From: Candidatus Parcubacteria bacterium
GTDB lineage: Bacteria > Patescibacteriota > Patescibacteriia > CAIXNZ01
DNA length: 64,000 nucleotides
Direction of reading: 5' to 3'
Assembly (NCBI GenBank): GCA_026395685.1
Contig: JAPLYG010000001.1
Coordinates: 7,862-71,861, forward strand
Part shown: positions 7,255-61,991 of the stretch, one piece after another
Layout of the letters: each line of letters starts with the position of its first letter
How positions within the stretch are numbered: the first letter of the stretch is position 1
Program-made: the position numbers and the translations under genes
Notes under the pieces: generated by a model
What the model was told of the DNA's origin: nothing
The model's database searches: none
The model's input: only the letters and a program-made list of their open reading frames with translations

Positions 7255-7291
7255 AAAATTATTATTAATTTTTAAAATAACTGCAAAAATT

Positions 7292-8518: not shown

Positions 8519-8544
8519 TAAAATCATTTTTCTTAAGTTATCAT

Positions 8545-9435: not shown

Positions 9436-9459
9436 TTTAATGATTTTAAATATAAACTT

Positions 9460-9846: not shown

Positions 9847-9871
9847 ATACGTTGGAATTTTTTAAAAAAAT

Positions 9872-11869: not shown

Positions 11870-11890
11870 TAAGCTGGCGTTTTGCATAGG

Positions 11891-25029: not shown

Positions 25030-25046
25030 ATAATAGGTGAAATTTT

Positions 25047-25083
25047 TGGGAAAACAAAAAGGGTCCCACGTCGGTGGCACCCT
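25047..25083 (-). terminator. Hairpin plus U-run immediately upstream of the 23962-25029 start (leader attenuator or terminator of an upstream sRNA)
   Basis: Minus strand reads 'GGGTGCCACCGACGTGGGACCC' followed by 'TTTTTGTTTT', about 20 nt before the ATG. Confidence 0.4.
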
Positions 25084-43784: not shown

Positions 43785-46700
43785 ATGTCTATGTTCTATC
43801 GCATCTATCGTCGGCCGCTACTCTCAACAGCCAGGACTGAAGAATTACAGCAAGTTCTGGCAGAAGTGGTGCCGGAAATTTCTGGGCTGGAAACTGAAAA
43901 AGTATTCTGCCTGGAAACAAAAAGGGAACTGACTGACGAGGAAATGGATCGGCTCAGGTGGCTCTTAGGCGGAGCTGACAGAGCCAAATGTCTGTCAGAC
44001 AGAACTTTTTTCCAAGATCACAGCAATGTGATAGAAATTGGTCCGCGGCTGCATTTTGAAACAGCTAATTCAACCAATGCTGTTTCCATTTGCCAGTCCT
44101 GTGAACTACCTGTGATCAGGCTGGAAGAAGCCAGACGTTACAAATTCATAAGCACTCAAACCTTGGGCAATGGCAAGATCGATCTGATTCTGCCGTTGTT
44201 GCACGACAAAATGACAGAGTGTCCGTATCCCAATCAGCTGACAACTTTTGTCACTGACAAAAAGCCGGAGCCGGTAAAGTATATTCCGGTAATGGAACAG
44301 GGAATGGATGCTTTGGTCAAAGCCAATGCTGAATATGGCACTGGCATGGACAAGGCGGATTTGCAGTACTATTTGTATCTCTTCACTGAAGTTGCCAAAC
44401 GCAATCCCACTGATGTTGAATGGTGCGATCTGGGCAACTGTAATTCTGAACATTCGCGACATCATGTCTTCCGCGCCAAGCTGATTATCGACGGACAGGC
44501 AATGCCCTTCACGCTGATGGATATTATCAAAAGCACGCTGACCAATCTCAGCAACTCTATTATTGCTTTTGATGATAATGCCTCGGCGATTAAAGGTGTG
44601 CCAGTTGGTTTCCTCATTCCTGAAAGACCTGGTTTACCTTCGCCAGTGCGTATGGCCGAACTTTTACTCCATTACGTGCTGACCTGCGAAACGCACAATC
44701 ACCCCTGCTTATGGGCAGCATATCCCGGAGCAGGAACGGGTGGCGGTGGCCGCAGACGCGATAATCAGGGTTTGGGCAGAGGCGGCTTAATTGCTGCCTG
44801 TTCAGCTGGATTTTTTGGCGGCAATCTCAATATTCCGGGCTATCCCCTGGAATGGGAAGATCCAAACTTTGCCTATGATCCGCTGTGCGAAAGCCCGCTG
44901 AAATTTTTCCGCAAAGCTGTTAATGGCGCTTTTGATGACGGCAATCAGTGTGGCGAGCCAGTCATTCTGACTTTCTTCGAGAGCTTTGGCTTGCGTATCG
45001 GTGCCGAACGCTGGGAGTACATCAAGCCGATCATGTTTACCGGTGGCTTTGGCTTCCTTGATGATCGCCATGTTAAAAAACACGAACCTGTTCCTGGCTG
45101 GCTGATTGTCCGAATCGGCGGCAAGGCCCATGAAGTTGGTTTTGGCGGCGGTGCTGCTTCCAGCTTAATGGGTGGTCAGAACATTGCAGCCCTTGATTTC
45201 AAATCAGTGCAGCGCGCTGATGGGGAAATGGCTCGCAAAACCGACCAGGTTATCCGCACTTGCGTCATGAAGGGTGATGATAATCCGATTGAAACGATTC
45301 ATGACCAAGGCGCTGGCGGACCTGGTAATGTGCTTAAAGAAATCATGGCTCCGGCTGGCGGTAGGATTGATATTCGCAACATCATCCTGGGCGATAAAAC
45401 CATGTCACCGGTGGCGATCTGGGTTTCCGAGTTCCAGGAAAATATGGCGATGTTAATCAAGCCAGAGCGCTGGGAAGAATTCAAGGCCATCTGCGACCGG
45501 GAAAAAGTCCCCTGCGCCGTGGTGGGTACGATCACTGGCGACGGCAAAGTCGTGGTTATTGATTCTCAGAACAATACCACTCTCTTTGATCTCAGTCTCC
45601 AGCAGATTTTCGGTGAATATCCTCTGAAAACTTATGAGGATACGCGCCGCAAACTAGAACTTCAGCCGCTTAATTTACCCGAAGATCTGTCAGTGGCTCA
45701 AGCTCTGGAAAAAACTTTCAAGCTGTTACAAGTTGGTTCGCAGGAATGGGCAGTTCACGTGGTTGACCGCAGTGTTACACCGCATGTGGTGCAGCAGCAG
45801 TGTGTCGGCCCCTGGCAATTGCCGATCAACAAATATTCGGTGATTGCGCCCAGCCCCTTCAGTCATACTGGCATGACCAATTCAGTAGGCACTAAACCCA
45901 TCATCGGCTTGATTTCACCGCAAGCCAGCGCCAGAATGTCTGCTGCTGAAGCTTTGTTAAGGCTGATGTTTGTTCCGGTCAGCAGTCGAGATGAAATCAA
46001 AGCATCCATAAACTGGATGCTGGCAGCCAAAGTCCCGGGCGGGATTGCCTGGCTGTACGATGCTGCTGTGGCTTTGCGCGATTTCATGAATAGCATCGGC
46101 ATGGATGCTGATGGCGGCAAAGATTCTTTATCAATGGCTACTAATGCCGGCGGAGAAAGAGTCAAATCGCCCAGCACAGTAGTAGTCAGCACCTATGCTG
46201 CTTGTACGGATTATCGCCAGAGATTGCAGCCTTACCTCAAGAATCCTGGCCAAACCAAACTGTTATTTGTTGATTTGGCTAATGGCAAAACCCGCTTAGG
46301 CGCGAGCGCCTTAGCTCAAGTCTGTGGCCAAGTCGGCAATGACTGTCCTGATGTTGAGAATGTTGATTTAGTCAATCAGGCTTTTGATAGCGTCCAGAAA
46401 TTGCTGGTCGCTGACGGCTTGATTGTCTCTGGCCAGCTGCGCAGTCGTAATGGTCTGATCTCGTCGTTGTGTGAAACAGCCTTTGCCGGCAACTGCGGAC
46501 TGTCAGTTAACATTCAACATCCGACAGCTTCGGCTAAAGAGGTACTGTTTTGCGAAGAGCTGGGTTTTGTCCTGGAATATCTGCCGGAAAACGAAGACGA
46601 CTTGTTGGCAGCGTTTGCCGAAGCCGGTCTTTCGAAGCATATCCAACAGATCGGAGTAACCACTACGGATAAGCAAATCATTATTCGTTTTAATGGGGAA

Positions 46701-47684
46701 CCGATCTTCAATGAACCGAGTGATCTCTGGCTACAAAAATGGCGGGAAACATCTTTCCGGATGAAAGCCTTGCGTTCAGTCAAAGCAGTCGTGGCTCAAG
46801 AAAGAGCCAATATTGCCAAAGGCAACGGCCTGGAATTTTCTCTCAGCTTTAATCCGGATTTAATTACTCCGGTGAAGACTGATTTTCCCGGCAAACCGAA
46901 AGTGGCCATTATCCGCGATGAAGGCACTAACAGCCAAGAAGAAATGAAAGTCGCGTTTTACTTGGCTGGCTTTGAACCCTATGATGTCACCATCACTGAT
47001 CTGGCCAGCGGAAAAGTCAGTTTGCGCGATTTTCGCGGCGTCGCTTTCCCAGGCGGATTCAGTTATAAAGATGTCCTGGGTTCAGCTGTTGGCTGGGCCG
47101 GAGTAATCAAGTTTAATCCGGTTCTTGTCAAAGAATTTTTAGCCTTTTTTCAACGGACAGATACTTTCAGCGTGGGCATCTGTAATGGCGATCAGGTAGA
47201 AATCTGGCTGGGAGTGCTTTATCCCGAGCTTGATGAATTGTCGCAGCCCAGGATGTACTTCAACTTGAGTGAATCTTTTGAATCGCGATTTGTCAGAGTG
47301 AGCATCTTGGATTCTCCAGCAATCATGTTGAAGGGTATGGCTGGATCAATTCTGGGAATCCACGTAGCTCATGGCGAAGGTCGTTTTTACTTCCCGGATG
47401 ACCAAATCTATCGTAGTATCCTATCCAAAGGTTTGGCGCCGGTAAGGTACATTGATCCGAGCGATCAACCGACTGAGGATTATCCCTTCAATCCCAATGG
47501 ATCTCCTGCGGGTATTGCGGCTTTGTGTTCTGCTGACGGCAGGCATCTTGCTATTATGCCGCATCCAGAACGTACAGTCCTAGTCAGGCAGTGGCCTTAT
47601 TTGCCCTACGGGACAAATTGGGAAAACTCGCCCTGGCTGAAAATGTTCCAGAACGCCTATCAGTGGTGTATGGAACAGAAGTAA
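43785..47684 (+). CDS. purL: Phosphoribosylformylglycinamidine synthase, single-chain large form (PurL/FGAM synthase)
   Basis: 1299-aa protein. AIRS-like domains, and a C-terminal class-I glutamine amidotransferase with catalytic 'GICNGDQ' and 'MPHPER'. Confidence 0.9.
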   Translation: MSMFYRIYRRPLLSTARTEELQQVLAEVVPEISGLETEKVFCLETKRELTDEEMDRLRWLLGGADRAKCLSDRTFFQDHSNVIEIGPRLHFETANSTNAVSICQSCELPVIRLEEARRYKFISTQTLGNGKIDLILPLLHDKMTECPYPNQLTTFVTDKKPEPVKYIPVMEQGMDALVKANAEYGTGMDKADLQYYLYLFTEVAKRNPTDVEWCDLGNCNSEHSRHHVFRAKLIIDGQAMPFTLMDIIKSTLTNLSNSIIAFDDNASAIKGVPVGFLIPERPGLPSPVRMAELLLHYVLTCETHNHPCLWAAYPGAGTGGGGRRRDNQGLGRGGLIAACSAGFFGGNLNIPGYPLEWEDPNFAYDPLCESPLKFFRKAVNGAFDDGNQCGEPVILTFFESFGLRIGAERWEYIKPIMFTGGFGFLDDRHVKKHEPVPGWLIVRIGGKAHEVGFGGGAASSLMGGQNIAALDFKSVQRADGEMARKTDQVIRTCVMKGDDNPIETIHDQGAGGPGNVLKEIMAPAGGRIDIRNIILGDKTMSPVAIWVSEFQENMAMLIKPERWEEFKAICDREKVPCAVVGTITGDGKVVVIDSQNNTTLFDLSLQQIFGEYPLKTYEDTRRKLELQPLNLPEDLSVAQALEKTFKLLQVGSQEWAVHVVDRSVTPHVVQQQCVGPWQLPINKYSVIAPSPFSHTGMTNSVGTKPIIGLISPQASARMSAAEALLRLMFVPVSSRDEIKASINWMLAAKVPGGIAWLYDAAVALRDFMNSIGMDADGGKDSLSMATNAGGERVKSPSTVVVSTYAACTDYRQRLQPYLKNPGQTKLLFVDLANGKTRLGASALAQVCGQVGNDCPDVENVDLVNQAFDSVQKLLVADGLIVSGQLRSRNGLISSLCETAFAGNCGLSVNIQHPTASAKEVLFCEELGFVLEYLPENEDDLLAAFAEAGLSKHIQQIGVTTTDKQIIIRFNGEPIFNEPSDLWLQKWRETSFRMKALRSVKAVVAQERANIAKGNGLEFSLSFNPDLITPVKTDFPGKPKVAIIRDEGTNSQEEMKVAFYLAGFEPYDVTITDLASGKVSLRDFRGVAFPGGFSYKDVLGSAVGWAGVIKFNPVLVKEFLAFFQRTDTFSVGICNGDQVEIWLGVLYPELDELSQPRMYFNLSESFESRFVRVSILDSPAIMLKGMAGSILGIHVAHGEGRFYFPDDQIYRSILSKGLAPVRYIDPSDQPTEDYPFNPNGSPAGIAALCSADGRHLAIMPHPERTVLVRQWPYLPYGTNWENSPWLKMFQNAYQWCMEQK

Positions 47685-47691
47685 TCCAAAC

Positions 47692-47724
47692 GCCCCGTTG
47701 TCGCAAGACGCGGGGCTTTTTTTA
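47692..47724 (+). terminator. Rho-independent terminator after purL
   Basis: 'GCCCCGTTGTCGCAAGACGCGGGGC' followed by 'TTTTTTT'. Confidence 0.8.
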
Positions 47725-47924
47725 ATTGGTGAGTAGTGTGTTGGTTAGGAAGCTAGTAGGTGGAGGTTTCATGGGTTAGGTGTTGAATAAATACTTTACC
47801 TTAACACTCTGCACTTACTAGCATCTTTACCTTTGCACTTAACCGTATGTTTGACAATTTTCAACATTTTTAATATGGTAAATACGAATTGGTTACAAGT
47901 TTGTACTTTAACAAGGAGAATATT

Positions 47925-49043
47925 ATGGAAGAACAAAAGGGAATGACGTATCAGGGAACCGGCGTAAACTACGATGACATGGATCCATTTAAAAGAGAGG
48001 CGCAACAAGCCGGACTGAAAACAGCCGGTAACATCAGCCGTCTTAATATGACGGAATTTGCTCCGAGCCGGGGCGAGAGCGCGTATCTGGTTGATTGCGG
48101 GAATCATTTTTTGGCGCAGGTCGTGGAAGGCTTGGGTACCAAGAATATTGTGGCCGAAGCCATGCAACAGCTAACCGGTGAATTGCATTTTGATTTAATT
48201 GCCCAGTGCTGCATGGCCATGATCGTCAATGACCTGATTACTGTCGGCGCCTTGCCCATTTCCGCGGCCATGTATTTGGCAGTGGGTGATTCAGCCTGGT
48301 TCAAAGACGAAGCGCGCGCCAAGAATCTGATTGACGGCTGGATGCATGCCTGCAATAAGTCTGGCTGTACCTGGGGTGGTGGGGAAACACCCACACTCAA
48401 AGGCATTATCAATCCAAATACAATCGATCTGAGTGGCGCGGCCATGGGCATCATTAGGAATAAACAGCATTTGATTACTGGCGAGAAGATCAAGCATGGC
48501 GATGTCATCATCGTTTTTGCCAGTTCCGGAATTCATGCCAATGGTCTGACTCTGGCCAGACGGATCGCTGAAAAGTTGTCCCAAGGCTACTTAACTCCAA
48601 TTGATTATATTGGCACGACATATGGCCGAGCCTTGCTGGATCCGACCGTGATCTATGTTCCTATCATCGAAGATTGTCAGTATTGGAATGTGAACGTACA
48701 CTACGCAGTCAATATCACAGGCCATGGTTGGCGCAAGCTGATGCGTAGTCAGGAACCTTTTATTTATGTCATTGAAACAATTCCTGATCCTCAGCCGGTT
48801 TTCCAGATCATGCAAAAGCATGGTCCGGTGGACGACGAAGAAGCCTATGGCAACCTGAATATGGGCGGTGGCTTTGCCATCTTTGTGTCAGAAAAGGATG
48901 TGCCTCTGGTCGTTGATATTTCCAAGGCTACCAACATACCGATTGTCGGCTACGGACATATTGAAAAAAGTGGTGAGGACAAGAAAGTCATCATTGAACC
49001 CAAAGGCATTACCTTTGATAGTAAAAGTCTGCAGGTTCGCTGA
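47925..49043 (+). CDS. purM: PurM-family protein (AIR synthetase / AIR-synthase-related)
   Basis: RBS 'AAGGAGAA' before the ATG at 47925. 'VEGLGTKN', 'MIVNDLITVGALPI', 'SGCTWGGGETPTLKG' and 'GDVIIVFASSGIHANGLTL' align with PurM motifs. Confidence 0.7.
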   Translation: MEEQKGMTYQGTGVNYDDMDPFKREAQQAGLKTAGNISRLNMTEFAPSRGESAYLVDCGNHFLAQVVEGLGTKNIVAEAMQQLTGELHFDLIAQCCMAMIVNDLITVGALPISAAMYLAVGDSAWFKDEARAKNLIDGWMHACNKSGCTWGGGETPTLKGIINPNTIDLSGAAMGIIRNKQHLITGEKIKHGDVIIVFASSGIHANGLTLARRIAEKLSQGYLTPIDYIGTTYGRALLDPTVIYVPIIEDCQYWNVNVHYAVNITGHGWRKLMRSQEPFIYVIETIPDPQPVFQIMQKHGPVDDEEAYGNLNMGGGFAIFVSEKDVPLVVDISKATNIPIVGYGHIEKSGEDKKVIIEPKGITFDSKSLQVR

Positions 49044-50054: not shown

Positions 50055-50372
50055 TTACCATGACAATACGCTAAGAATTAATTTTTTCCAGCTGGGTTTT
50101 CTTTTATAGCGTTTAAATTTGCGTTCTGCTTTTTCAATAAGCTGGAAATAGTAAGTAGAACTCATTGTCCCCAAAACACAGCCCAGAGCATATGCCAGAA
50201 TAATACTCCAATTAGTAATGTCTGAAATGATGGCTTCAATAATATAGTACCAGACAATAATTTCAATCAGAGTAATTGCGCCGCTGGCCCAGACTTGGCT
50301 TTTATTGACCACCTTGGTCCAGATAGTGCAAATTATCATTTCAGCCAGGCCGATTAGAAAAAAGGAAATCAT
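50055..50372 (-). CDS. Small membrane protein (hypothetical)
   Basis: Three hydrophobic helices. Basic C-terminus 'KFKRYKRKPSWKK'. Confidence 0.35.
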   Translation of the reverse strand: MISFFLIGLAEMIICTIWTKVVNKSQVWASGAITLIEIIVWYYIIEAIISDITNWSIILAYALGCVLGTMSSTYYFQLIEKAERKFKRYKRKPSWKKLILSVLSW

Positions 50373-50622
50373 AGGTGTGGGGGATTAAAAATTAGATTAA
50401 ATATTATAGCCAGAATCTATAATCGTAAAAGCTAACTATTTTGATATTATGAGATTTTGGCTAAGGTCCGACCTTTGGTAAGAGCAATTTAAGGCGCTTT
50501 TGTGTGTTGCCTATTTTAGCAAATTTCAGGTAATGTGTCAAAAGTATCTTGTCAGGAGCGTCTGACATTCTTTAGCTAAAAAAGGCAGCTTAGTGAGCCG
50601 CCTTTTTTGCTGTAAATTTATA

Positions 50623-53600
50623 TTAGCGCGGTATATTTACATTGCCTTTTAGCCTGATTCTAGCAATAACGCCTCTGCCATTATTTTTTTCATCTTTTTC
50701 TAAAATTAATTCCCAATTTTTGCGGGCTTCAGGCGTTTCAGCATTAAAAAAGAGGGTTGGTATTTTGCTGTTGGGCACAAAAATTTTATACCAGGATACT
50801 TTGACTTCAGCTCCTGCATCTAAAATAGATATATCCTCAATTGGGAAAGAATTAAGGTTAAGCCTGTTTAAAAGGATCAGCGCATTTTCATTAAAATATT
50901 CCCCATTCCTAACGATTTGCCTGTTGGGAGGAAGTTGTCCGGCCAGAATTCTTTTGACATAATTATTATCGCCATAGTCAATTTTCTCGTTGGCCCCAAT
51001 AAGATTTTTCATAAAGGTTTGATCATTCAGCAGGTTTTTAGTAAATGCTTCAACGTCAGAATCAACCAGAGTTAGAATCTCCAGGACTACAGGAGTAAAT
51101 TCATTCAGCTTTGCTTCTAGAATCTGCTTAACCTCTTGAGGATGATTTTTGACATGATGCTGTAAAAATTTGCCTGTCAAAGGAAAATAAATTTGGGCAA
51201 ATTCTTTGGCTTCTTCAAAATTTTCAGCTTCTCCTAACTTTTCAAATACTTCACTATTAAGAAAATGATTTATATGGTTCTCAAGCTCATTTTTAAAGAT
51301 GCCTGCCAACTCAGTTAAAAATGTAATTTCTTTGGCAGAAAGCGATTTGTCCCTGATAACTTCTGCCAATTGGCCTTCTCTTTTCTTGAGATTTTTCAGC
51401 TTGTTCCTGATTATTTCCAGCTGTTTTTCTAGCGGAAGATTGCGCAGCCACGGACTGGCAATATTGAAATTTCTATTGGCTAAGGCAATTATAAATTCCT
51501 GATCTTTTCCCAAATCTGTACCTTTTGAAATCAAATCTTTGATCTCATCTTGTTTTTTTAATATTTCATCAATTTGCCTCAGGTCTTTTAGTGAGTTTAA
51601 TTCAGTAAAGATCAGCCTTTTTTGTTTTGTCGCTTCCACTAAGGGCAAGCCAAAATTAGGATTTTTTTCCACCAATTTCTCAAAAAATTGTAAGTTGTCA
51701 GGATTTTGCAGCCAGCTGGAATTGTAATTTAGGAGTTTTTCTAGCTGGCTTGTTTTGTCAAAATTTTCCTTTATAATTTCACGCAGTTCTGCCTGGCTGT
51801 TAGCATCGTCAAACAGCATATTGATATAAACAATTGCAGAATCAAAGTCTTTTTTTGCCATTTTTCTGACTTCGGCAGCATCTTCAAGAATAATTCCTTT
51901 TACGTTTTCCATAATTAACCTGGAATTGGTGCCACGTCCGGCTAACGCTTCCTTGAGAAACCTTTTTTGATCTTCCGGCGTTAAATATTTTAGATATTTC
52001 AACGCCAATGAGAAGCTAAGGTCTGCCAATTTGTTCATTATTTCAAGGTCGTCACAAATCTTTGGATTGCTTTTTAGAAAAGATTCAAGATCAAGCATCT
52101 CCGGGTGGATAAGGTATTCTTTAACAGATAAAATTATTTTCTTCTGGATTTCTTTATCTTTAGTTATTCCCAGGGCTAAGGCAAAATGATGATAAGCAAT
52201 TTCTCCAATGATATTCCTATTACTTAAATACTCTGGCTTAATTTCTAAAATTTTCTTTATATCACTTTCAGACAAATCTTGTATTTTTTTTATAATAATG
52301 TCCTCTAAGTTTGTAGCGCCGATTTGTGCTGGTAAGTCTTTCAGATAGGGAATTAAAAGAGAAAAATTATATCTTCTTACAGCTTGCAATAGTTGCTGAT
52401 CAGCAAGCAGTTCTTTGTTTCTGGCAATAAGGTCATTAAAAATTTCAATAGAAGCGGTAGAAGCAGTGCCGAATTTAATGTAGGTTATAACAACTTCCCT
52501 TTTTTCCTCATCAGTCAACTGCGGCAGCAACAGATCTTTATAGTAACTTATTTTTTCCTTAAGTGATGTCTTAATTTGGGGGACATCCAGCAAGTCAGGC
52601 CTTGCTTTTAAAAATTGTTCGATTTTATAAACATAATTATCTCCTCCGCTGACTGGTACGCCGTGATGAAATAATATTTTTTCCATAATAGCAATCTGGG
52701 TTTCTTCATCAACCTTGTCTGCAAATTTAAAAAATATTTCCGGGTTTTTTTCAGCAATTAATCGGCCGAAAGCTTCATTCTTTAAAAAATTCGGATATTG
52801 ACTTAAAATTTCGTCTAACTTATTGATTCTTTCCGGACTTTTAAAATTTATATTGGCAGCTTTTTCAAGATAATGTAATATCCTTTGCTTTTTTTGGTTT
52901 TCATCAGATAAAAGACTGGGATCAACTTCTATAATAGCTTTCAAGGCAAAAAAGTTTTTATCAATAAGCTCTGTCAGAAATCCCTGCTCTGCTCCCAATT
53001 TTGTTACTTTTGCTAAAGTCGTGAGAATTCTTGGAAGCGCATACTCTGATTTACAATTTAGAGCTAAAAATTTTAATAATTCTTTACCGCTCACGGTATA
53101 TTGCCGGGATATCAAGGCGTTAATAATGTCTACTTTGCCGGTCAGCAATTTTTTTATTTCCTCGCCATCTGTCAGCTCACGACAAATTGACAGAATAATA
53201 TGATCATAGGCTATTCTGGCAAAAGTATGCTTTTTTGTCGTGTCTTTTCTTTTTTTACCTATTCTATATACTTCCCATTCTTCCCAGTCATTATTGGAGC
53301 TCCTTTTATACTGAAGAAGTAAAATCAGTATTTTAGGCTTGGAAAGGTTATGTGTCTTGGAAATTTGTTTAATCAGCTTGTCTAAATTATCCGTATCAAA
53401 CTGATCAACGCCTGGTTTGCTGACTTTGTTTACCAGTTCTTCGTATTGTTCTCCGACCATTTTTCTCAGCAGTTTATCTTGTTTTTCCTGATCCATCTTT
53501 TCCCCCAGAATTTCTGTTCTAAAGCGAAAAATTCGATGAACAAAGCCCGGATCCGAAGTTATTGTATCTGAAAGTTTTACGAAAAGATCATTTAATTTAC

Positions 53601-56247
53601 TTTTGTGCACCCCAATTAATTTTATTACCTGTTCGTCTTGGCTATTGGCATCAAGAAAATAAAACAGACTTATAATAAACTCACGATCGTGTGATTTTTC
53701 AGCGACAGAAATCGCCTGCTCAAGGTTATTAATCTTTTCCTGCTTAAATTTTGTGGTTAGGCTAAAAAGCTGTAAAATTTCAGGTAGATTTAATTTATCT
53801 TCTTCAGGGTTATTTTTACTTAAATTGAAATAGTAACTGCTTAGTTTTTTTGGCGCATATCGCAAGACAATGGGTAAATCAAGCTTGGGCGTGGTTGGCA
53901 ACAGGCTCAAAACCTCAAGTAACTTATCCTGATTGGTTTTTATATCCTGAGTCAGCTTTTTTATATAATTCTCAATAGTTTCTTTAATTTCCGCTCCGAT
54001 TTTTATTTGGCTGAATAATTTTGCCTTTTCTTCAGTTGCAATATCCAGGATTAGCAAATTTTCCGCATAATTGGTAAAGTTTGCCAGCACTTTTTTGCGC
54101 ATAAATTCCTGCACCTCGGGATTTTTATGCTTTAGCAAGCTTATGGGAAAGTTTAATTTTGTGGTTTCCGGCAGAGAAGTTAAAATATCCAAAACCAGGG
54201 GCGCAAAGGCGGCTAATTTTTCAGAATTTCGTTCTTTAAAAAATTCTTTATAAATATTTTGGGCAACCTCTACGCTGACATTGCCCTTGAGTTTAAGCAG
54301 GCAATATTGCAGATTTTTGGGGTCAAGGCCTTTATTCAAAAAGCCAATTGGATTTTGGGCCACGTATTCCATGTATCTTTGATCCAGTCCGCCTTCTTTT
54401 TCTGCTGATTTTTTCACTTCTTTTATTACCTGAGTCGGAGTAATTTTTTCTTTGATTTGAAAAACAGTTATGTTGTTTAAGTCTGCGGCTAATTTTTCCA
54501 AATTAACTTTTTTGTCGATTTTTGCCAGGAAATATTTCAAGCGTCCCAGTTTGGTAAGGGCACGTTGGCGATGGGATTCTCCCAGTTTTTCTTCGATTTG
54601 ATTTTGGGTGTCCTTATCAAGTGTCGGGATGGCGCTTTTTTCCAGGACGCTGATATTATTTTTTGCCAAGACATTATAAAATTCCGAAGTAAAAGGCTGA
54701 TTGGTGGAAAAACGTAAAAGTCCGCCTGTTTTGGCCATGCGTACCATGTCAACAAGCATATTTTTTACATCATTTTCTGATGACGGCCCCTTAAGATTAT
54801 CAAAAGAAGAGCATTCTACCAGATCAATGCAATTATCGGCAATCGGCGTATGCTTCATATCCGCCAGAATATCATGGCCTTGATTTTTTATGTCTTGAGG
54901 CAAGGTTTCGCGACTGTTGGCCAGCATGTCAAGGCTGTAATCTGCTGAAATAATATGTTCCGGCATTTTATAATCAGGAAAGCGTTTGGCAATATCATAA
55001 TGGGCTCTTAATTCTTCATGAGGTCCGGAAGCAACAGAAAGAATTACCTGGGGAAGATTCTTTATTAATCCTTTTTTATATTTGCTGATTAAATCTAAAA
55101 CAGCTGCCCGATGTTCCAAATATTGGGGAAAATAATCCATATATTTGACATACAGCTTGGTAATTTCATTGGTCCATTTCCCTGTTTTGGTAGCATTGGA
55201 AATCAGCCAGAATTTTTGCTGCAGTTCATTGGGGACAATTGATTTTTCAGTGGTTTTAATTCTTTTAAAATTCAATAATTCAGGATTGGGATCTGCTATT
55301 TCTTTAAATTTAATGCCCTCCGCATCTAAAAAGGGGAAAATATTATGAAGCGGTATCATTTCAGCCGGGGTGTCATTTAAGACTTCGACAATTTTGCTTT
55401 GCTCTCGGGAGATCGCTCCGGAAAAAAATTCATTCAATTCTCGCTTGCCCAGTTCCTCAAATTTTTGCAGTTCCTTAAAGGTTGAAGCCTGTTTCAATTG
55501 CTTGAAGCGTAAATCTTCAATCTCAAAATCAGCAATGTTCAAGTCGGGATATTCTTTGCGCAAAATTTTCCAGACTGTTTCTTTTACTTCGTCGGCTAAT
55601 ATTTTTTTTATAAAATAAGCAATAATGTCAGATTTCTTTTCAGCCAAGACGCTGTCTTTGGGCAACCCTTTCTCCAATTTATATTGTTCTTCTAGGGATT
55701 TATTTTTTTCCAGGTTTTCTTTGATTTTTTCAAAGGTATAAAGAATCGCGCCGGTAATTTTCGGGCTGAGGTTTATATTATTGGGCAAACCATTAATTTT
55801 AAGCGCCACTCCCATCGGCATGATGGAAAATTCAGAAGCTGATTTTAAGTAGGTTTCCATAATCGGCAGATTGCCAAAAGGCAAGCGAGCTTCAATGACT
55901 GTTTTTTGCAGTCTTTCCTTTGAGGTAAGCTCTTCGCTTGACACTTCTTGTCCCAGATTAATTTCTTCGGATGTTTGTAATTTTTCTTTAATCAGAGATT
56001 TCATCTCCGCAGTCAGGTCAAGCTGCAGCATAACAGCCCAAAAGCGGCGTCTGATTTCCAGGCCGGAATTGCTAATCTTTTTTATATATTCGACAAAATT
56101 GGCAGTTTCTGTTTGTTTGTTTTCAGTGCTAAGTAAAATTAAAATTTCTTGGGCAATTGAATCTTTAAATTTTTCAGTGCCAAGTAGGTCTTTAAGCAGT
56201 TGTTGCGGAGATTTTTTAAGCTGTTCTTTCAGAGAAAAATTTAACAT
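50623..56247 (-). CDS. Giant (1874 aa) largely alpha-helical hypothetical protein with an embedded class-I SAM-MTase-like segment
   Basis: Uninterrupted 5.6-kb ORF. 'VILSVASGPHEE' and 'ADMKHTPIADNCIDLVECSSFDNL' resemble MTase motifs I and II/III. No TM segments. Terminator hairpin 'GGCAGCTTAGTGAGCCGCC' lies downstream at 50587-50620. Confidence 0.55.
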   Translation of the reverse strand: MLNFSLKEQLKKSPQQLLKDLLGTEKFKDSIAQEILILLSTENKQTETANFVEYIKKISNSGLEIRRRFWAVMLQLDLTAEMKSLIKEKLQTSEEINLGQEVSSEELTSKERLQKTVIEARLPFGNLPIMETYLKSASEFSIMPMGVALKINGLPNNINLSPKITGAILYTFEKIKENLEKNKSLEEQYKLEKGLPKDSVLAEKKSDIIAYFIKKILADEVKETVWKILRKEYPDLNIADFEIEDLRFKQLKQASTFKELQKFEELGKRELNEFFSGAISREQSKIVEVLNDTPAEMIPLHNIFPFLDAEGIKFKEIADPNPELLNFKRIKTTEKSIVPNELQQKFWLISNATKTGKWTNEITKLYVKYMDYFPQYLEHRAAVLDLISKYKKGLIKNLPQVILSVASGPHEELRAHYDIAKRFPDYKMPEHIISADYSLDMLANSRETLPQDIKNQGHDILADMKHTPIADNCIDLVECSSFDNLKGPSSENDVKNMLVDMVRMAKTGGLLRFSTNQPFTSEFYNVLAKNNISVLEKSAIPTLDKDTQNQIEEKLGESHRQRALTKLGRLKYFLAKIDKKVNLEKLAADLNNITVFQIKEKITPTQVIKEVKKSAEKEGGLDQRYMEYVAQNPIGFLNKGLDPKNLQYCLLKLKGNVSVEVAQNIYKEFFKERNSEKLAAFAPLVLDILTSLPETTKLNFPISLLKHKNPEVQEFMRKKVLANFTNYAENLLILDIATEEKAKLFSQIKIGAEIKETIENYIKKLTQDIKTNQDKLLEVLSLLPTTPKLDLPIVLRYAPKKLSSYYFNLSKNNPEEDKLNLPEILQLFSLTTKFKQEKINNLEQAISVAEKSHDREFIISLFYFLDANSQDEQVIKLIGVHKSKLNDLFVKLSDTITSDPGFVHRIFRFRTEILGEKMDQEKQDKLLRKMVGEQYEELVNKVSKPGVDQFDTDNLDKLIKQISKTHNLSKPKILILLLQYKRSSNNDWEEWEVYRIGKKRKDTTKKHTFARIAYDHIILSICRELTDGEEIKKLLTGKVDIINALISRQYTVSGKELLKFLALNCKSEYALPRILTTLAKVTKLGAEQGFLTELIDKNFFALKAIIEVDPSLLSDENQKKQRILHYLEKAANINFKSPERINKLDEILSQYPNFLKNEAFGRLIAEKNPEIFFKFADKVDEETQIAIMEKILFHHGVPVSGGDNYVYKIEQFLKARPDLLDVPQIKTSLKEKISYYKDLLLPQLTDEEKREVVITYIKFGTASTASIEIFNDLIARNKELLADQQLLQAVRRYNFSLLIPYLKDLPAQIGATNLEDIIIKKIQDLSESDIKKILEIKPEYLSNRNIIGEIAYHHFALALGITKDKEIQKKIILSVKEYLIHPEMLDLESFLKSNPKICDDLEIMNKLADLSFSLALKYLKYLTPEDQKRFLKEALAGRGTNSRLIMENVKGIILEDAAEVRKMAKKDFDSAIVYINMLFDDANSQAELREIIKENFDKTSQLEKLLNYNSSWLQNPDNLQFFEKLVEKNPNFGLPLVEATKQKRLIFTELNSLKDLRQIDEILKKQDEIKDLISKGTDLGKDQEFIIALANRNFNIASPWLRNLPLEKQLEIIRNKLKNLKKREGQLAEVIRDKSLSAKEITFLTELAGIFKNELENHINHFLNSEVFEKLGEAENFEEAKEFAQIYFPLTGKFLQHHVKNHPQEVKQILEAKLNEFTPVVLEILTLVDSDVEAFTKNLLNDQTFMKNLIGANEKIDYGDNNYVKRILAGQLPPNRQIVRNGEYFNENALILLNRLNLNSFPIEDISILDAGAEVKVSWYKIFVPNSKIPTLFFNAETPEARKNWELILEKDEKNNGRGVIARIRLKGNVNIPR

Positions 56248-56315: not shown

Positions 56316-56360
56316 TAATAAAAGGGCGGTGCTTTTGCCCGCCCCTTGGTTGTCTTTTTT
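56316..56360. terminator. Bidirectional terminator between the giant gene start and the PEPCK stop
   Basis: 'GGGCGGTGCTTTTGCCCGCCC' with an A-run before and a T-run after. Confidence 0.6.
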
Positions 56361-58152
56361 AATTTTTGTTCAGTCGGTTCTTCAAAAGCAAATGCTGCTG
56401 GAAAATTTCAACCGGCACGGTATTGCCCAGTTTTTCCTTGAGGAATTTTTCCCGCTTGTCCATCTCTTCCAGCCAAAGATCTTTATCAATCTTCAGCAGT
56501 TTCTCCATGGTCTCAGGGTCAATGTTCAAGCCAGTCAGATCAAGGTCGTTTGGTCCCGGCATAAAGCCAATCGCTGTTTTTTGCGCTTCAATTTTGTTGT
56601 TGCAACGGCTAATAATCCATTCCAAAACACGCAGGTTATCGCCATAACCTGGCCAGAGGAAATTGCCGTTTTCATCTTTACGGAACCAATTGACATGGAA
56701 AATCTTTGGCGCCGGGTTCAGGCGCTCACCGGTACGCAGCCAATGGCTTAAATAATCAGCCAGGTTGTAGCCGCAGAATGGCAGCATGGCCATGGGGTCA
56801 AACCTTAGATCTCCAATGCCCTGAGTTTGGGCTGCTGTTACCTCAGAAGATGTAGTTGCCCCGATATAGACTCCATGTTCCCAGTTGAAAGCCTCATAAA
56901 CCAGAGGTGTGACTGTAGCGCGGCGACCTCCAAAAATAATCGCCGAGATGGGCACTCCTTGAGGTTGTTCAATCCGTCGGCTGACACTGGGACATTGTGA
57001 TAAGGGTGCAGTGAAGCGGCTGTTGGGATGAGCGCCCAGAATCAGCTTGTTGTCAGCGTCTCGCAATCCCGGGTACCAGGGTAATCCCTGCCAATTAACT
57101 CCGCTTGCCGGAGTTTCGCCATCGCAACCTTCCCACCAGACAGTGTAATCAGGTTTAAGTAAAGTATTGGTAAAGATCGTGTTTTTACCAATTGTTGCCA
57201 TGGCATTGGGATTGCTCTGAGTATTTGTTCCGGGTGCAACACCAAACATGCCTGCTTCAGGGTTGATACCCCAAAGTTGGCCGTCGGTATTCACCCGCAA
57301 CCAGGTGATATCATCGCCAATGGTGAAAATACGGTAACCCTTGGCTTTGAATCCTTCAGGAGGAATCAGCATGGCCAAATTAGTTTTGCCGCAGGCACTG
57401 GGAAAGGCCGCTGCAATGTAAGTGATTTGTCCGCTTGGACTCTCAATGCCCATAAGGAGCATATGTTCAGCCAGCCAGCCCTCTTGTCTGGCTTGGTAAC
57501 TGGCAATGCGTAAAGCCAGGCATTTTTTGCCCAGCAGTGCATTTCCGCCATAACCAGAACCAACGCTCCAGATTTCATTGTCCTGGGGAAAATGAAGAAT
57601 CAGGCGCCGTTCAGGATCAAGCGATGCCAGACCGTGCATGCACCGGGTAAATTCACCCTTGTACCCCAGGGCATCTAAAACAGCTGAACCGGCTCTGGTC
57701 ATGATCATCATGTTGATCACGACATAGAGAGAGTCGGTAATTTGGACTCCAATTTTGGAAAATTGAGAGCCAATTGGTCCCATGGAAAATGGGATCACGT
57801 ACATTACGCGGTTGCGCATGGAGCGTGAAAAGATCCCTGTTGCCCGATCGCGTGCTTCCTGAGGAGACATCCAGTTATTGGTCGGGCCAGCCTGGTACTT
57901 ATCCTGAGTACAGATGAATGTCAGCTGCTCAGTTCGGGCAACATCTCCAGAATTACTGCGATGATAATAGCAGCCAGGATGTTTATCCTGGTTTAGCTTG
58001 ATCAGGTCGCCGTTGCGCAAAGCAAGCTGAATTATTTCTTCTCGTTGTGCATCAGAGCCATCGACAATAACAATGTCTTTAGGCTCGCACATGGCAGCCA
58101 TCTGCCAGATCCATCTGCGCAGACCCTCATGTTTGATCTCATCCAATTTCAT
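56359..58152 (-). CDS. pckG: Phosphoenolpyruvate carboxykinase (GTP)
   Basis: About 600 aa. N-terminal 'WIWQMAAMCEPKDIVIVDGSD'. Kinase-1a 'AAAFPSACGKTNLAM'. 'YGGNALLGKKC'. GC-rich. Confidence 0.9.
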   Translation of the reverse strand: MKLDEIKHEGLRRWIWQMAAMCEPKDIVIVDGSDAQREEIIQLALRNGDLIKLNQDKHPGCYYHRSNSGDVARTEQLTFICTQDKYQAGPTNNWMSPQEARDRATGIFSRSMRNRVMYVIPFSMGPIGSQFSKIGVQITDSLYVVINMMIMTRAGSAVLDALGYKGEFTRCMHGLASLDPERRLILHFPQDNEIWSVGSGYGGNALLGKKCLALRIASYQARQEGWLAEHMLLMGIESPSGQITYIAAAFPSACGKTNLAMLIPPEGFKAKGYRIFTIGDDITWLRVNTDGQLWGINPEAGMFGVAPGTNTQSNPNAMATIGKNTIFTNTLLKPDYTVWWEGCDGETPASGVNWQGLPWYPGLRDADNKLILGAHPNSRFTAPLSQCPSVSRRIEQPQGVPISAIIFGGRRATVTPLVYEAFNWEHGVYIGATTSSEVTAAQTQGIGDLRFDPMAMLPFCGYNLADYLSHWLRTGERLNPAPKIFHVNWFRKDENGNFLWPGYGDNLRVLEWIISRCNNKIEAQKTAIGFMPGPNDLDLTGLNIDPETMEKLLKIDKDLWLEEMDKREKFLKEKLGNTVPVEIFQQHLLLKNRLNKN

Positions 58153-59308: not shown

Positions 59309-59382
59309 TTGGGCGAGTAAAGGGAATCGAACCCTTGTTAACGGGACCACAACCCGCTGCTCTACCATTGAGCTATACCCGC
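59309..59382 (-). tRNA. tRNA-His(GUG) with encoded G-1 and C73. CCA not fully encoded.
   Basis: Minus strand reads 'G-GCGGGTATAGCTCAATGGTAGAGCAGCGGGTTGTGGTCCCGTTAACAAGGGTTCGATTCCCTTTACTCGC-C'. Anticodon loop 'TTGTGGT'. Confidence 0.8.
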
Positions 59383-59528
59383 CACGAAAATAGTTTAAAG
59401 TTCAAAGTGCAAAGTTTGAAGTTACAATGTAAAGTTTAAAATTTTGGAATAATTATTTAACATGTCCTTCCTAAACTTTGAATTATTAACTGCAATTTTA
59501 CATTTTAAATTTTGAACTTTTAACTATC

Positions 59529-59587
59529 CGTGTGTCCCCGCTAGGAATCTCCCGCGAAGCAGGATCCGCCTCTGGCGGAGAACCTTG
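59529..59587 (-). repeat. GGATCCGCC-hairpin element plus a duplicated 3' end of tRNA-Arg
   Basis: Minus strand immediately 3' of tRNA-Arg reads 'TCCGCCAGAGGCGGATCC...', then 'TTCCTAGCGGGGACAC', a repeat of the tRNA T-stem and acceptor 3' strand. Confidence 0.55.
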
Positions 59588-59659
59588 TGTCCCCGCTAGG
59601 AATCGAACCTAGATCTAAAGCTTAGAAGGCTTTCGTTCTATCCATTGAACTACAGGGAC
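59588..59659 (-). tRNA. tRNA-Arg(UCU). CCA not encoded.
   Basis: Minus strand reads 'GTCCCTGTAGTTCAATGGATAGAACGAAAGCCTTCTAAGCTTTAGATCTAGGTTCGATTCCTAGCGGGGACA'. Anticodon loop 'CTTCTAA'. Confidence 0.8.
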
Positions 59660-59679
59660 TTATTTAATTTGTGGGTACT

Positions 59680-59730
59680 CCATTGTCCCGCGGCGCGGGA
59701 TCCGCCTCCGGCGGAAACTACAGGGACGAA
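59680..59730 (-). repeat. tRNA-Arg 5' fragment interrupted by GGATCCGCC-hairpin element
   Basis: Minus strand reads 'GTCCCTGTAGTT' (tRNA-Arg positions 1-12), then 'TCCGCCGGAGGCGGATCCCGCGCCGCGGGA', then 'CAATGGA' (D-loop). Confidence 0.55.
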
Positions 59731-59960
59731 ATCCGCTCTGTCATTCCGAATGTTAATGAGGAATCTCTTTGGGTTTCGGTATCCAAGGAGATCCTTCGCT
59801 ATGCTCAGGATGACAGAGCGGATTTTAATTTAAAAAAGCTCAAAGCTCAAAGCTCCGAGCCCAGAGCTTACTCGTATTTTAGCAGAAAAATTTAGTTTAG
59901 TCAATATTAAAAAGGCGAGAGAACTCGCCTTTTGTCAGCAGTGGGAAAATCGTTTATCGA

Positions 59961-60320
59961 CTATCTTTTTCTGGCCAGATAATCCTCTGGGAATTTGGCT
60001 GGAATGATGATCAGCGCTTTGCAGTGTCGGCATTTAATTTCCAGTTTGTTACCGAGAAATCTGCCTAAAAGATTACCGCAGTCACACCTTTCATCCAGGT
60101 ATTTATTCGGCTCTTTACCGATTGAAATCTCCAAGTCAATCTGGCAGGGAATGAATATTAACCGTTTACAACGGCGGCATTTAATTTCAATACCGCTGGT
60201 ATCTCCCGTAACCACTTTGCAGAACAAAGTTCCGCAATCGCAACGTACTTCGTTGCCGATAATCCTAATCCGTGGCCTGTTACCCTTAAAAACTCTGTTG
60301 GTTCTGGGGTCATTAGCCAT
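59961..60320 (-). CDS. Tandem Mu Com-like zinc-ribbon protein
   Basis: Two repeats 'CDCGTLFCKVVTGDTSGIEIKCRRCKRLIFI' and 'CDCGNLLGRFLGNKLEIKCRHCKALIIIP'. Confidence 0.5.
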   Translation of the reverse strand: MANDPRTNRVFKGNRPRIRIIGNEVRCDCGTLFCKVVTGDTSGIEIKCRRCKRLIFIPCQIDLEISIGKEPNKYLDERCDCGNLLGRFLGNKLEIKCRHCKALIIIPAKFPEDYLARKR

Positions 60321-60413
60321 TTTTTACCTCCTAAGGTATTTTTTCGACTTCAGTTGAAGTCTCCGTTAAATTATCAGGAAGCAAATAATATGTCAAGGCG
60401 ATTATTCTTATGT

Positions 60414-61352
60414 TTAGCCTTTAGTTTTATGATGAAAATTCTTATAAACTTCGCGCAGTTGCTTATCAGTAATATGAGTATAAATTTGAGTAGTGGTAAT
60501 TGATGAATGTCCCAGCATCATCTGGACTGAACGGATATCAGCGCCGTTTTGGAGCAGATCCGTGGCAAAGGAATGGCGCAACACATGGGGAGTAATTTTT
60601 TTGGTAATGCCGGCAATCTTGGCGCATTTTTGGACGATCCTTTGAACTGACCGCGGAGTTAAGCCTTTATCTTCTTTGGTTTTATTGCGTTTTATTCCGG
60701 CTTTGTCATGATTGGTAAATAAATAGGCGGACATATCTTTGCGGGCATCACAATATTTTTTTATCCAGTGTTTGGCCTGGTTGGATAAAAAGACGACACG
60801 TAATTTCGAGCCTTTGCCGCGGACCGTGAATTCGTCTTTATTGAGGTTGATTGCCTCTTTTTTCAAGCCGGCTAATTCAGAAACACGCAATCCGGTACAA
60901 AATAAAGTTTCCAGAATTGCTTTGTCGCGCAGTTGTAATATTTCCGGCTGATCAATTTTAAAAGGCGCTTCCAGAAAGTTTTGCAAATCAGAGCCTTCCA
61001 AAAATTCGATCTGGCGTTCGGGCATTTTGGCTAGTTCAATTTTTTCCGGAGCTAAAGTTTTAATATCCTGTTTGGCTAAATACTTTAAAAAAGCGCGCAA
61101 GGCGATCAGATGATAATTCTGAGTATTTTTTTTCAGCGGCGAACCAGCCGCATCTGTTTGCCTGTTGAGCCATAAGCGATAATTGCGCACAGAATCCTGG
61201 GTGATTTGTTCTGCGCCGGAAAAACCAGACCAAGCCAAAAAACGGTTGAGATAGAAATGATAATTCTCAATCGTATTGCGCGCCCGGCCTTTTTCAATTT
61301 CGAGGTATTCGAGAAATTGGCGGATTAGGTTTTGGAGATTTGGTGATGGCAT
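60414..61352 (-). CDS. Tyrosine recombinase XerC/XerD family
   Basis: C-terminal catalytic region 'RHSFATDLLQNGADIRSVQMMLGHSSITTTQIYTH' (R..H..R..Y pentad). Confidence 0.85.
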   Translation of the reverse strand: MPSPNLQNLIRQFLEYLEIEKGRARNTIENYHFYLNRFLAWSGFSGAEQITQDSVRNYRLWLNRQTDAAGSPLKKNTQNYHLIALRAFLKYLAKQDIKTLAPEKIELAKMPERQIEFLEGSDLQNFLEAPFKIDQPEILQLRDKAILETLFCTGLRVSELAGLKKEAINLNKDEFTVRGKGSKLRVVFLSNQAKHWIKKYCDARKDMSAYLFTNHDKAGIKRNKTKEDKGLTPRSVQRIVQKCAKIAGITKKITPHVLRHSFATDLLQNGADIRSVQMMLGHSSITTTQIYTHITDKQLREVYKNFHHKTKG

Positions 61353-61670: not shown

Positions 61671-61991
61671 ATGTGGGAAGTGCTTGAATTGGTTTTGTTG
61701 GCCATTATTTTTGTGATGGGTGTAACTCAGGTGGTTATTCCTGCGTTTTCCAAACTGCCCTTTTTTTGGCTCTTTCGCCAAAACGGCTTCAAAAGGCTCA
61801 TAAAGGCTGAGACAGATTTGACCGAAGCAGAAGTTGAGAGTGAAGCCCGCCAAGTTGAAAGAGAAGCGTGGGATAAAAAGTTGGACGGGTTGGGGATTGA
61901 CCATGATGAAAAACAAGATTCCGATAGTAATTTTGGGATACCGGAAACCAAACGCAGACAACAGCAGAAAGAAAGGGAGAAGGGAAAATGA
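61671..61991 (+). CDS. Small membrane protein, NfeD-like partner of the SPFH gene
   Basis: RBS 'AGGAGAAAG' before Met 'MWEVLELVLLAIIFVMGV'. The stop overlaps the start of the SPFH gene (ATGA). The minus-strand ORF 61491-62009 is considered spurious. Confidence 0.45.
   Translation: MWEVLELVLLAIIFVMGVTQVVIPAFSKLPFFWLFRQNGFKRLIKAETDLTEAEVESEARQVEREAWDKKLDGLGIDHDEKQDSDSNFGIPETKRRQQQKEREKGK

Follow-up and report, generated by a model that had tools for sequence, protein, structure and literature searches.

A giant Candidatus Parcubacteria protein with an embedded, divergent class I SAM-dependent methyltransferase domain

Methyltransferases (MTases) of the PF08241 and PF13649 families (UbiE/BioC-like; 3d2l, 1wzn, 1y8c; PfPMT 3uj6) are proteins of about 250 aa. 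In class I MTases an acidic residue at the end of strand 2 binds ribose hydroxyls, and an acidic or polar residue after strand 3 binds adenine. Here we describe a related domain that sits inside a protein of 1874 aa, encoded within a stretch of 64,000 nucleotides from a Candidatus Parcubacteria bacterium, which is referred to below as the window. Because CPR/Patescibacteria genomes are tiny, a gene of 5.6 kb represents a large investment.

50623..56247, minus strand: protein-coding gene, complete, with an ATG start, 1874 aa plus stop

A preliminary description of this locus, made from the sequence alone, reported a single uninterrupted 5.6-kb ORF encoding a soluble, uncharacterised giant protein of CPR origin without transmembrane segments, and our results agree on each of these points. 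At the base composition of the region the probability of a stop codon is 0.074, giving a chance of ~1e-63 for 1874 codons without a stop, and in 200 shuffles the longest stop-free run was 138 codons; the ORF is therefore not a chance product. The other two same-strand frames of 50623..56247 contain 145 and 191 stops. We conclude that the ORF is a real gene. Its product is identical to MCX6739646.1, annotated only as 'hypothetical protein NTZ49_00255 [Candidatus Parcubacteria bacterium]', and the GC content of the gene is typical of its genome. No transmembrane segment was found in the 1874-aa protein (Kyte-Doolittle 19-residue mean, maximum 1.2), no signal-peptide-like N-terminus was apparent in it by eye, and Rfam revealed no RNA element within or adjoining the gene. 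The minus-strand orientation was absent from the preliminary description, as were the N-terminal domain and the conserved C-terminal beta-barrel.

56321..56345, minus strand: intrinsic-terminator-like hairpin, GGGCGGGC-AAAA-GCaCCGCCC then TTTTATTATT, 3' of the PEPCK stop codon
56274..56282, minus strand: extended -10 promoter-like element, TGtTATAAT, 27 nt 5' of the ATG, a consensus match only

The hairpin, which stands between the upstream PEPCK gene and the giant gene, was read straight from the sequence; its stem is bulged, and a consensus scan did not list it. Conserved synteny was not found in the window and the loci of five relatives, where the neighbours are unrelated housekeeping genes, and thus any inference based on operon structure is rejected for all six loci. 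Since a putative terminator and an extended -10 element lie upstream, and the neighbours differ in every genome examined, the sequence suggests that the giant gene stands alone as its own transcription unit.

55234..56100, minus strand: N-terminal family-specific alpha/beta domain, aa ~50-338, from conservation and AlphaFold
54448..55233, minus strand: class I SAM-dependent MTase domain, aa 339-600, from Pfam, a family profile, AlphaFold and Foldseek
53098..54447, minus strand: helical region conserved within the family, aa 601-1050
50890..53097, minus strand: lineage-specific spacer, aa 1051-1786, without detectable homologues
50638..50889, minus strand: small beta-barrel domain, aa 1787-1870, one helix and six strands, predicted OB-like

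The domain order is thus an N-terminal alpha/beta domain, the MTase domain, a helical spacer whose length varies greatly and a C-terminal OB-like beta-barrel. Evidence for the second of these comes from several comparisons. Pfam model PF08241 (Methyltransf_11) matched aa 430-512 with 23.9 bits against a gathering cut-off of 21.2 (E 6.8e-5), spanning positions 19-94 of the 95 in the profile, and four of eight family members matched PF08241/PF13649, the best with an E of 1.3e-7. A family profile searched against the PDB matched 3d2l, a SAM-dependent MTase, with an E of 6e-4 from strand 2 to strand 5; NCBIfam gave weak matches to UbiE/MenG and BioC. AlphaFold modelled aa 340-600 with a pLDDT of 80-95 and the canonical strand order (strands 1-4 at aa 401-405, 431-436, 457-461 and 474-479; strands 5-7 at aa 505-515, 532-543 and 571-577), and both AlphaFold and Foldseek point to the seven-strand alternating beta/alpha fold with its terminal strand 6-7 hairpin. 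The domain also has a helical cap at its N-terminus (aa 341-391), and two helices (aa 545-567) are inserted between strand 6 and strand 7. Foldseek returned 426 PDB matches at E<=1e-3, the best 50 of which were all class I SAM MTases, the nearest being phosphoethanolamine N-MT, RebM, GPP C-MT, TleD and a Trm112-dependent MTase. With solved MTases the domain shares only 10-16% sequence identity. Together, the profile matches and the model support the assignment of the embedded segment to a divergent but genuine class I SAM-MTase fold.

55012..55047, minus strand: Motif I, strand 1 plus cofactor loop, VILSVASGPHEE, aa 401-412, from the family alignment
54793..54861, minus strand: end of strand 3 (D463-M464), strand 4 and the post-strand-4 signature DLVECSSFDNL, aa 463-485

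The MTase-like segment had originally been noted for two stretches, VILSVASGPHEE and DMKHTPIADNCIDLVECSSFDNL, which indeed start at aa 401 and aa 463, respectively. In the AlphaFold model VILSV forms strand 1 and is followed by the cofactor loop, D463-M464 comes directly after strand 3, and CIDLVEC forms strand 4, so that the first stretch falls on strand 1 and the SAM loop and the second covers strands 3-4. Because both are placed on the Rossmann fold, the refutation named in the preliminary description does not apply and the MTase reading stands. The cofactor loop is in the expected place after strand 1, but reads S-V-A-S-G-P-H instead of the canonical D/E-x-G-x-G-x-G. Residues S404, A406, S407, G408, P409, H410, E411 and E412 do not vary within the family, whose signature is the SAM loop SxASGPHEE. 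Across about 100 related clusters 'SGP' is nearly invariant, and conservation is highest in the SGP loop and at D436, the acidic residue that closes strand 2; nearly all of 104 aligned domains retain the strand-2 Asp. Additionally, every family member keeps D436, D463, E478, C479, S480, S481 and G509. D436 and D463 provide the acidic residues at the end of strand 2 and after strand 3, and align with the Asp residues of 'GVD' and 'QDM', respectively, in 3d2l. This pattern of conservation argues for a cofactor site under selection. We infer SAM binding and catalytic activity for the domain, where the binding stays a prediction because Motif I is non-canonical and is left unaligned by the Pfam and PDB profiles. 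A catalytic Cys of the m5C type at C479 was considered as a clade-wide feature and rejected, since the helicase-fused branch of the MTase clade has Asn in place of Cys479.

The preliminary description also pointed to conservation and synteny of homologues as a check, and conservation is found, in a core of aa 50-720 that is alignable in every relative, while synteny is not. The alignment extends to about aa 720 for all relatives and to about aa 1050 for some. The N-terminal domain is kept in all full-length relatives; its aa 115-253 have a beta-alpha-beta-beta-alpha-beta secondary structure with a pLDDT of 55-80, and searches of Pfam and PDB sequences gave no match to it. Beyond the core, no homologues of the C-terminal 825 aa were found among 8000 word-sharing candidates, nor by phmmer against all fetched relatives, and the region equivalent to the spacer varies in relatives between about 140 and 1230 aa in length. 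The protein had been called mostly helical and repeat-like. Helicity is modelled for aa 600-720 and 1700-1786 only, in two AlphaFold models, and is deduced from composition for aa 720-1700. The repeat-like character is unsupported: self-BLAST of the protein produced no matches, and hhalign of segments of the protein against one another gave probabilities of at most 21%. Similarly, no HEAT, ARM or TPR match was found in Pfam, and neither profiles nor self-comparison fit a HEAT/ARM-type protein with tandem repeats of ~40-50 aa. These comparisons address repeats of sequence and are compatible with a helical solenoid lacking them.

The C-terminal domain carries the family motif GLNxFPV...GYxV...(I/V)FVPxS...LxL...GRVVGxI and recurs, as independent matches, in relative P0002 and twice in relative P0006. 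Its sequence conservation is weak, with a leave-one-out E of 0.004 at the right position and 3.3 bits. AlphaFold gave it a pLDDT of 82-90, and Foldseek searches of the PDB and BFVD placed OB folds nearest to it, all non-significant at E >= 0.047: the anticodon-binding domains of LysRS and AspRS, SSB (prob 0.89), Csp, S1, RPA and HIN. These weak structural matches to the model suggest an OB-like barrel, which may be an OB fold that binds nucleic acid. Searches of Pfam and PDB sequences with the domain gave no match; a cold-shock/S1 domain was rejected on this ground and on an hhalign probability of 0.6% against a Csp alignment.

The protein is a member of a very rare uncharacterised family: in a set of 1.84 billion representatives, about 12 clusters show the full architecture. 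Patescibacteria account for three of the four loci that carry a label, the relatives are 27-36% identical, and full-text literature searches, including work on CPR MTases, turned up no description of the family. Matches to F-box protein 3, MSV199, BIG2_C, patatin-like and ribosome hibernation factor models were below threshold and were judged compositional or due to chance.

Based on these results, we propose a cytoplasmic multidomain giant enzyme whose catalytic core would be the divergent class I SAM-MTase (aa ~339-600), placed between the N-terminal alpha/beta domain and a long alpha-helical spacer. The first ~450 residues of this spacer are conserved and the rest is free in length and sequence, with the barrel at its end. 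The barrel, and possibly the N-terminal domain too, would dock the protein on a macromolecule, most probably RNA or a ribonucleoprotein (RNP), and the MTase head of the docked protein would methylate this macromolecular substrate. A giant MTase tethered to a macromolecular, probably RNA/RNP, target is the reading that we prefer, with low confidence. A nucleic-acid target is hinted at because at least 16 distant relatives join an MTase of the same clade to SNF2/ResIII helicases. Points that we counted against the RNA/RNP proposal are the acidic pI, untypical of RNA-binding proteins and 5.3-6.2 in most family members; the closest structures, which are small-molecule MTases; the non-canonical Motif I; and, for the barrel, the non-significant OB matches, the weak leave-one-out result and the low Csp score. 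Known RNA-MTase families (THUMP, PUA, RsmB, etc.) had no match in Pfam/NCBIfam. Likewise, an RNA m5C MTase of the RsmB/NSUN type, with motif IV D-A-P-C-S and motif VI T-C, was considered and found no match in these databases.

Other explanations start from the same observations. The MTase could act on a protein or small molecule, with the helical region as a protein-protein scaffold and the barrel binding a protein or glycan. The top structural neighbours, small-molecule MTases and a Trm112-dependent MTase, fit this explanation, as do the weak UbiE/MenG and BioC matches and the acidic family; OB folds can also bind proteins and sugars. However, a scaffold of 1200-2500 aa suits a small-molecule enzyme poorly, biosynthetic neighbours are absent at the loci examined, and related MTase domains are joined to SNF2 helicases, and we consider such a target somewhat doubtful. 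The degenerate G-rich loop, with Ala for the first Gly, His for the third and Ser for the acidic residue, raises the further question of whether the fold is a pseudo-enzyme serving as a SAM/SAH sensor or structural module in a large cytoplasmic scaffold. The failure of Pfam and PDB profiles to align Motif I would agree with this, as would the fact that >85% of the protein is non-enzymatic. In contrast, relatives of 27-36% identity show no variation in the loop, at D436 and D463 or in the post-strand-4 residues, the pattern expected for a working cofactor and active site, and active MTases such as glycine N-MT tolerate Ala at the first Gly position. A pseudo-enzyme is thus unlikely in our estimation.

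The C-terminal ~800 aa without homologues and the hypervariable spacer length could also be those of an effector that an episymbiotic CPR cell exports non-classically to methylate a target in its host, the fast-evolving spacer then mirroring an arms race. Host-associated lifestyles are described for CPR bacteria in PMC11665869, and the gene two places downstream in one relative codes for a VirD4/TraG-like ATPase. The protein nevertheless has no signal peptide or transmembrane segment, secretion-system genes are not consistently near at the loci examined, and toxin/effector families gave no match to it, and we regard this explanation as quite improbable. A component of a mobile element or of an anti-phage defence or restriction-modification system would be in keeping with the SNF2 helicases of the distant relatives, which resemble DrmD, ZorD and DpdE, and with the integrase and tRNA genes ~4 kb from the giant gene. 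The evidence on the other side is broader: the window protein (P0001) had no match in PADLOC or PHROGs; tblastn of its MTase region against phage records and a scan of IMG/VR viral contigs found nothing; plasmids and phages searched with a helicase-fused relative, P0050, the only query used on plasmid records, yielded generic SNF2 matches only; no nuclease or helicase partner lies near, the neighbours at every locus being housekeeping genes; and the GC content is that of the genome. A restriction-modification or defence DNA MTase was rejected separately, since the post-strand-4 sequence is ECSSFDN where motif IV would read D/N/S-P-P-Y/F or P-C-Q; there was no N6_Mtase/DNA_methylase match in Pfam and none in PADLOC, and no partner nuclease or specificity genes occurred at any locus. 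We conclude that a mobile-element or defence origin of the giant gene is largely refuted and that the chance of its being correct is very slight.

A 'hypothetical' protein now has an MTase-fold core, confirmed at the level of the structural model, and a clonable domain map. A distinct class I MTase clade with an LSxxSGP loop recurs in large multidomain proteins, helicase fusions included. If the target of the tethered MTase that we prefer is RNA or the ribosome, it would add to the known peculiarities of the CPR translation machinery; if the target is instead a molecule of the host, the protein would be a candidate factor in symbiosis. More speculatively, and with little confidence, the protein may be the founding member of a largely Patescibacteria-restricted family of 'tethered' MTases with an SGP-loop head, a variable helical stalk and an OB-like anchor, and the SGP-loop clade, including its SNF2-fused members, may represent a new RNA/DNA modification activity outside the Pfam, NCBIfam, PADLOC and PHROG models. 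Overall, we regard the result as a sound improvement of the annotation and a curiosity of modest weight, and not as a surprise.

Compared with the PF08241/PF13649 MTases, the embedded domain has the Rossmann-type fold and strand order in common, along with the strand-2 acidic residue, 'DM' after strand 3 and a GG-containing strand 5, and its ECSSFDNL resembles the CDSLNYL of 3d2l. It differs from them in the SxASGPHEE loop, where they have D/ExGxGxG, and in having two additional helices that separate strands 6 and 7. The SNF2/ResIII-helicase-MTase fusions (the P0050 group), unannotated metagenomic proteins of about 1100-1250 aa, share with the window protein the LSxxSGP loop, the cap helices before the MTase and the FDMV(D/E)(N/C)xS strand 4, with E-values of only 1e-19 or weaker against the family profile. 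In this group, however, the helicase is N-terminal to the MTase, Asn replaces Cys479, and the N-terminal domain, helical spacer and C-terminal barrel are missing. The barrel is small, with 5-6 predicted strands, like the OB-fold domains of class IIb aaRS (anticodon-binding), SSB and cold-shock/S1 proteins, and we take its 'xVFVPxS' strand to look like the 'DVFVHFS' of cold-shock proteins, although on present evidence it is not a CSD or S1 family member. Finally, the giant proteins of uncultivated bacteria, such as those of Omnitrophota (bioRxiv 10.1101/2023.11.21.568195), are likewise large and mostly unannotated MAG ORFs; in comparison with these, the window protein has neither TM/secretion signals nor cell-wall-degrading domains and, at 1874 aa, is far smaller.

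The best-supported reading of our results is that the giant protein is a tethered macromolecular methyltransferase, in which accessory domains, possibly including a nucleic-acid-binding barrel, would bring a SAM-dependent head to a large target, most probably an RNA or RNP. The gene is a single uninterrupted frame, as a preliminary description had proposed:

50623..56247, minus strand: giant ORF, 1874 aa, ATG start (ORF listing)

The minus-strand translation is free of stops, the plus-strand translation is full of them, and the other two frames of the same strand contain 145 and 191. At the local base composition 1874 stop-free codons have a probability of ~1e-63, and shuffled copies of the region never gave a stop-free run of >138 codons. 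An exact match to the product, NCBI MCX6739646.1, is annotated as 'hypothetical protein NTZ49_00255 [Candidatus Parcubacteria bacterium]'. The Kyte-Doolittle mean over 19 residues peaks at 1.2, so that no transmembrane helix is expected, in agreement with the earlier view.

The segment at aa ~339-600 very probably has the class I methyltransferase fold, with the following elements:

VILSV: strand 1
ASGPH: cofactor loop
D436: acidic residue of strand 2
D463-M464: directly after strand 3
CIDLVEC: strand 4
AKTGGLLRF: strand 5

PF08241 (Pfam) matches aa 430-512 at 23.9 bits (gathering score 21.2 bits), PF08241/PF13649 matches were found in four of eight family members (best E 1.3e-7), and NCBIfam gave UbiE/MenG/BioC matches, all sub-threshold. 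The family profile aligns with the SAM-dependent methyltransferase 3d2l over strands 2-5 (E 6e-4). An AlphaFold2 model of aa 1-720, computed from a 10-sequence family alignment (mean pLDDT 73.6; 80-95 over aa 340-720), places strands at 401-405, 431-436, 457-461, 474-479, 505-515, 532-543 and 571-577 in the classical order, with a helical cap (341-391) ahead of strand 1 and two inserted helices (545-567) ahead of the last strand. Of the 426 PDB matches that Foldseek returned at E<=1e-3, each of the best 50 is a class I SAM methyltransferase. Pfam, profile, AlphaFold2 and Foldseek therefore agree on the methyltransferase that had been suspected from two strings, beginning at aa 401 and aa 463, both of which map onto strands or loop of the class I fold.

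Family-invariant residues comprise S404, A406, S407, G408, P409, H410, E411, E412, R414 and A415 in the loop, and D436, D463, D475, E478, C479, S480, S481, D483 and G509 beyond it. Selection on precisely the positions of the cofactor and active site argues for a site that works and would bind SAM. We regard the domain as somewhat more likely than not to be competent in catalysis; in the rival view it is a SAM sensor or a pseudo-enzyme.

The N-terminal domain (aa ~50-338) is conserved in the family and matches nothing known. Its modelled elements at aa 115-253 run beta-alpha-beta-beta-alpha-beta, an order that would fit a ferredoxin-like fold. The spacer between conserved core and barrel is 736 aa long, and among relatives its length varies between about 140 aa in P0002 and about 1230 aa in P0011; its modelled parts are short helices. 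Self-comparison of the giant protein found no repeats, and the earlier term 'repeat-like' is dropped.

No homologue of the C-terminal 825 aa was detectable. By inspection, a short motif was found to be shared among the relatives' C-termini. Eight C-terminal segments served as the seed of an HMM, which picked up two occurrences beyond that seed: P0002 has one (E 2e-6), and P0006 has a second copy (E 7.5e-8). A leave-one-out model matches aa 1778-1829 of the giant protein weakly (3.3 bits, E 0.004, single-sequence search). AlphaFold predicts one helix and six strands at aa 1787-1869 (pLDDT 82-90). Foldseek on this barrel gave nothing significant; OB folds make up nearly all of its best, non-significant matches: in the PDB the anticodon-binding domains of LysRS, AspRS and AsnRS, OBodies, RNase II, HIN, Csp, RPA and RuvA, and in BFVD S1 and CspC entries and an SSB (prob 0.89). 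Neither Pfam nor the PDB sequences gave a match to the barrel, and a direct profile comparison with hand-entered cold-shock protein sequences reached 0.6% probability. We therefore label the predicted barrel OB-like, unproven.

Only seven relatives (27-33% identity) came out of a word-indexed search over 5.8 billion clusters, and three more came from a profile search. Run exhaustively on 1.84 billion representatives, HMMER gave 108 proteins at E<=1e-3. Every relative aligns between about aa 50 and about aa 720, with some extending to about aa 1050. Only about a dozen of the 108 have the full N-terminal architecture (P0002-P0010, P0020, P0022, plus fragments). Among 185,579 species-representative genomes there were three matching loci, two in Patescibacteria and one on a 5-kb contig binned as Bdellovibrionales. 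Neighbours are housekeeping genes that differ in every locus examined, so that the check on synteny found none conserved.

Most of the 108 have only the methyltransferase domain in common, in some cases together with about 100 residues ahead of it. Retained in this wider SGP-loop clade are LSxxSGP...A, the Asp of strand 2 and, as strand 4, FDxV(E/D)(C/N)xS. In one branch, of about 1100-1250 aa, the domain follows SNF2/ResIII helicase and Helicase_C domains (Helicase_C in 16 of 44 scanned proteins, an SNF2-related domain in 14); another carries tandem W..NG..L..W repeats at its N-terminus. The metagenomic P0038 and P0039 have about 65-aa tandem repeats, F..xWLxxNGaxxLxxW, ahead of the domain; P0038 has no Pfam match. 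In the locus of the distant relative P0050 (L010, region 4937-11941), the SNF2-helicase/methyltransferase gene is followed by four similar-sized ORFs (~281-295 aa) without Pfam match, and it is preceded by similar ORFs of 291 and 175 aa, also unannotated.

The fusions to helicases are a hint at nucleic acids as the target of the clade, and are weak, indirect evidence on the giant protein's own substrate. We rate a nucleic acid substrate as possible but less likely than not; rival readings are a protein or small-molecule methyltransferase on a scaffold and an exported effector. A defence or mobile-element component is largely excluded; the protein has no match in PADLOC, PHROGs, phage records or IMG/VR contigs.

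The giant gene lies among these features:

about 56345-56321, minus strand: GC-rich hairpin and T-run after the PEPCK gene, read directly from the sequence
56282-56274, minus strand: TGtTATAAT promoter-like element, 27 nt before the giant-gene ATG, likewise read directly
50513-50567: region with the strong promoter-like site of the 105-aa gene, TTGACA-17-TAAAAT with TG
50055-50372, minus strand: 105-aa protein gene downstream of the giant ORF, sub-threshold DUF5698 match
43785-49043, 56359-58152, 61988-63229: GC-rich purL, purM-like, GTP-PEPCK and SPFH/Band-7 genes
60414-61352, minus strand: XerC/D-type tyrosine recombinase gene

The upstream PEPCK gene ends at 56359, and the putative hairpin and promoter suggest that the giant gene is a separate transcription unit. 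A weak hairpin follows its stop codon, ahead of the 105-aa gene's promoter-like site; we guess that the 105-aa product is a membrane protein. The GC content of the giant gene (0.357) is typical of the window (mean 0.373). Values for purL (0.49), the purM-like gene (0.476), GTP-PEPCK (0.489) and the SPFH/Band-7 ORF (0.53) are far above that mean; it is the metabolic genes on either side that look compositionally foreign, in contrast to the giant gene, and therefore may have been acquired. The tRNA-His and tRNA-Arg genes adjoin the recombinase gene (59311-61352), a region that could be an integration hotspot. The remainder looks like ordinary chromosome, with genes for FtsH, a PilB-type ATPase, a PAS histidine kinase, a type IIG-like methyltransferase, purL, purM-like, PEPCK, an integrase and three tRNAs. 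The 602-aa ORF at 12519-14327 (plus strand; HSDR_N and N6_Mtase/MmeI_Mtase domains) resembles a restriction-modification enzyme of type IIG. The second large ORF (636-4373, plus strand, 1245 aa) has CBM_4_9, a carbohydrate-binding domain, as its only recognisable domain and may encode a surface protein. A LOOT RNA (Rfam RF03000; 25076-25203, minus strand; 80.9 bits, E 1e-13) lies directly 5' of a 372-aa ORF (23962-25080, minus strand).

We found no description of the architecture, the SGP-loop clade, the N-terminal domain, the variable stalk or the C-terminal barrel in Pfam, NCBIfam, PADLOC, PHROGs or a literature search. The domain map helps annotation and the choice of constructs, and would not surprise a specialist. 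The catalytic fold is not new, and automatic annotation already calls one relative a 'class I SAM-dependent methyltransferase'. Compared with canonical class I methyltransferases, the giant protein departs from D/ExGxGxG in its cofactor loop.
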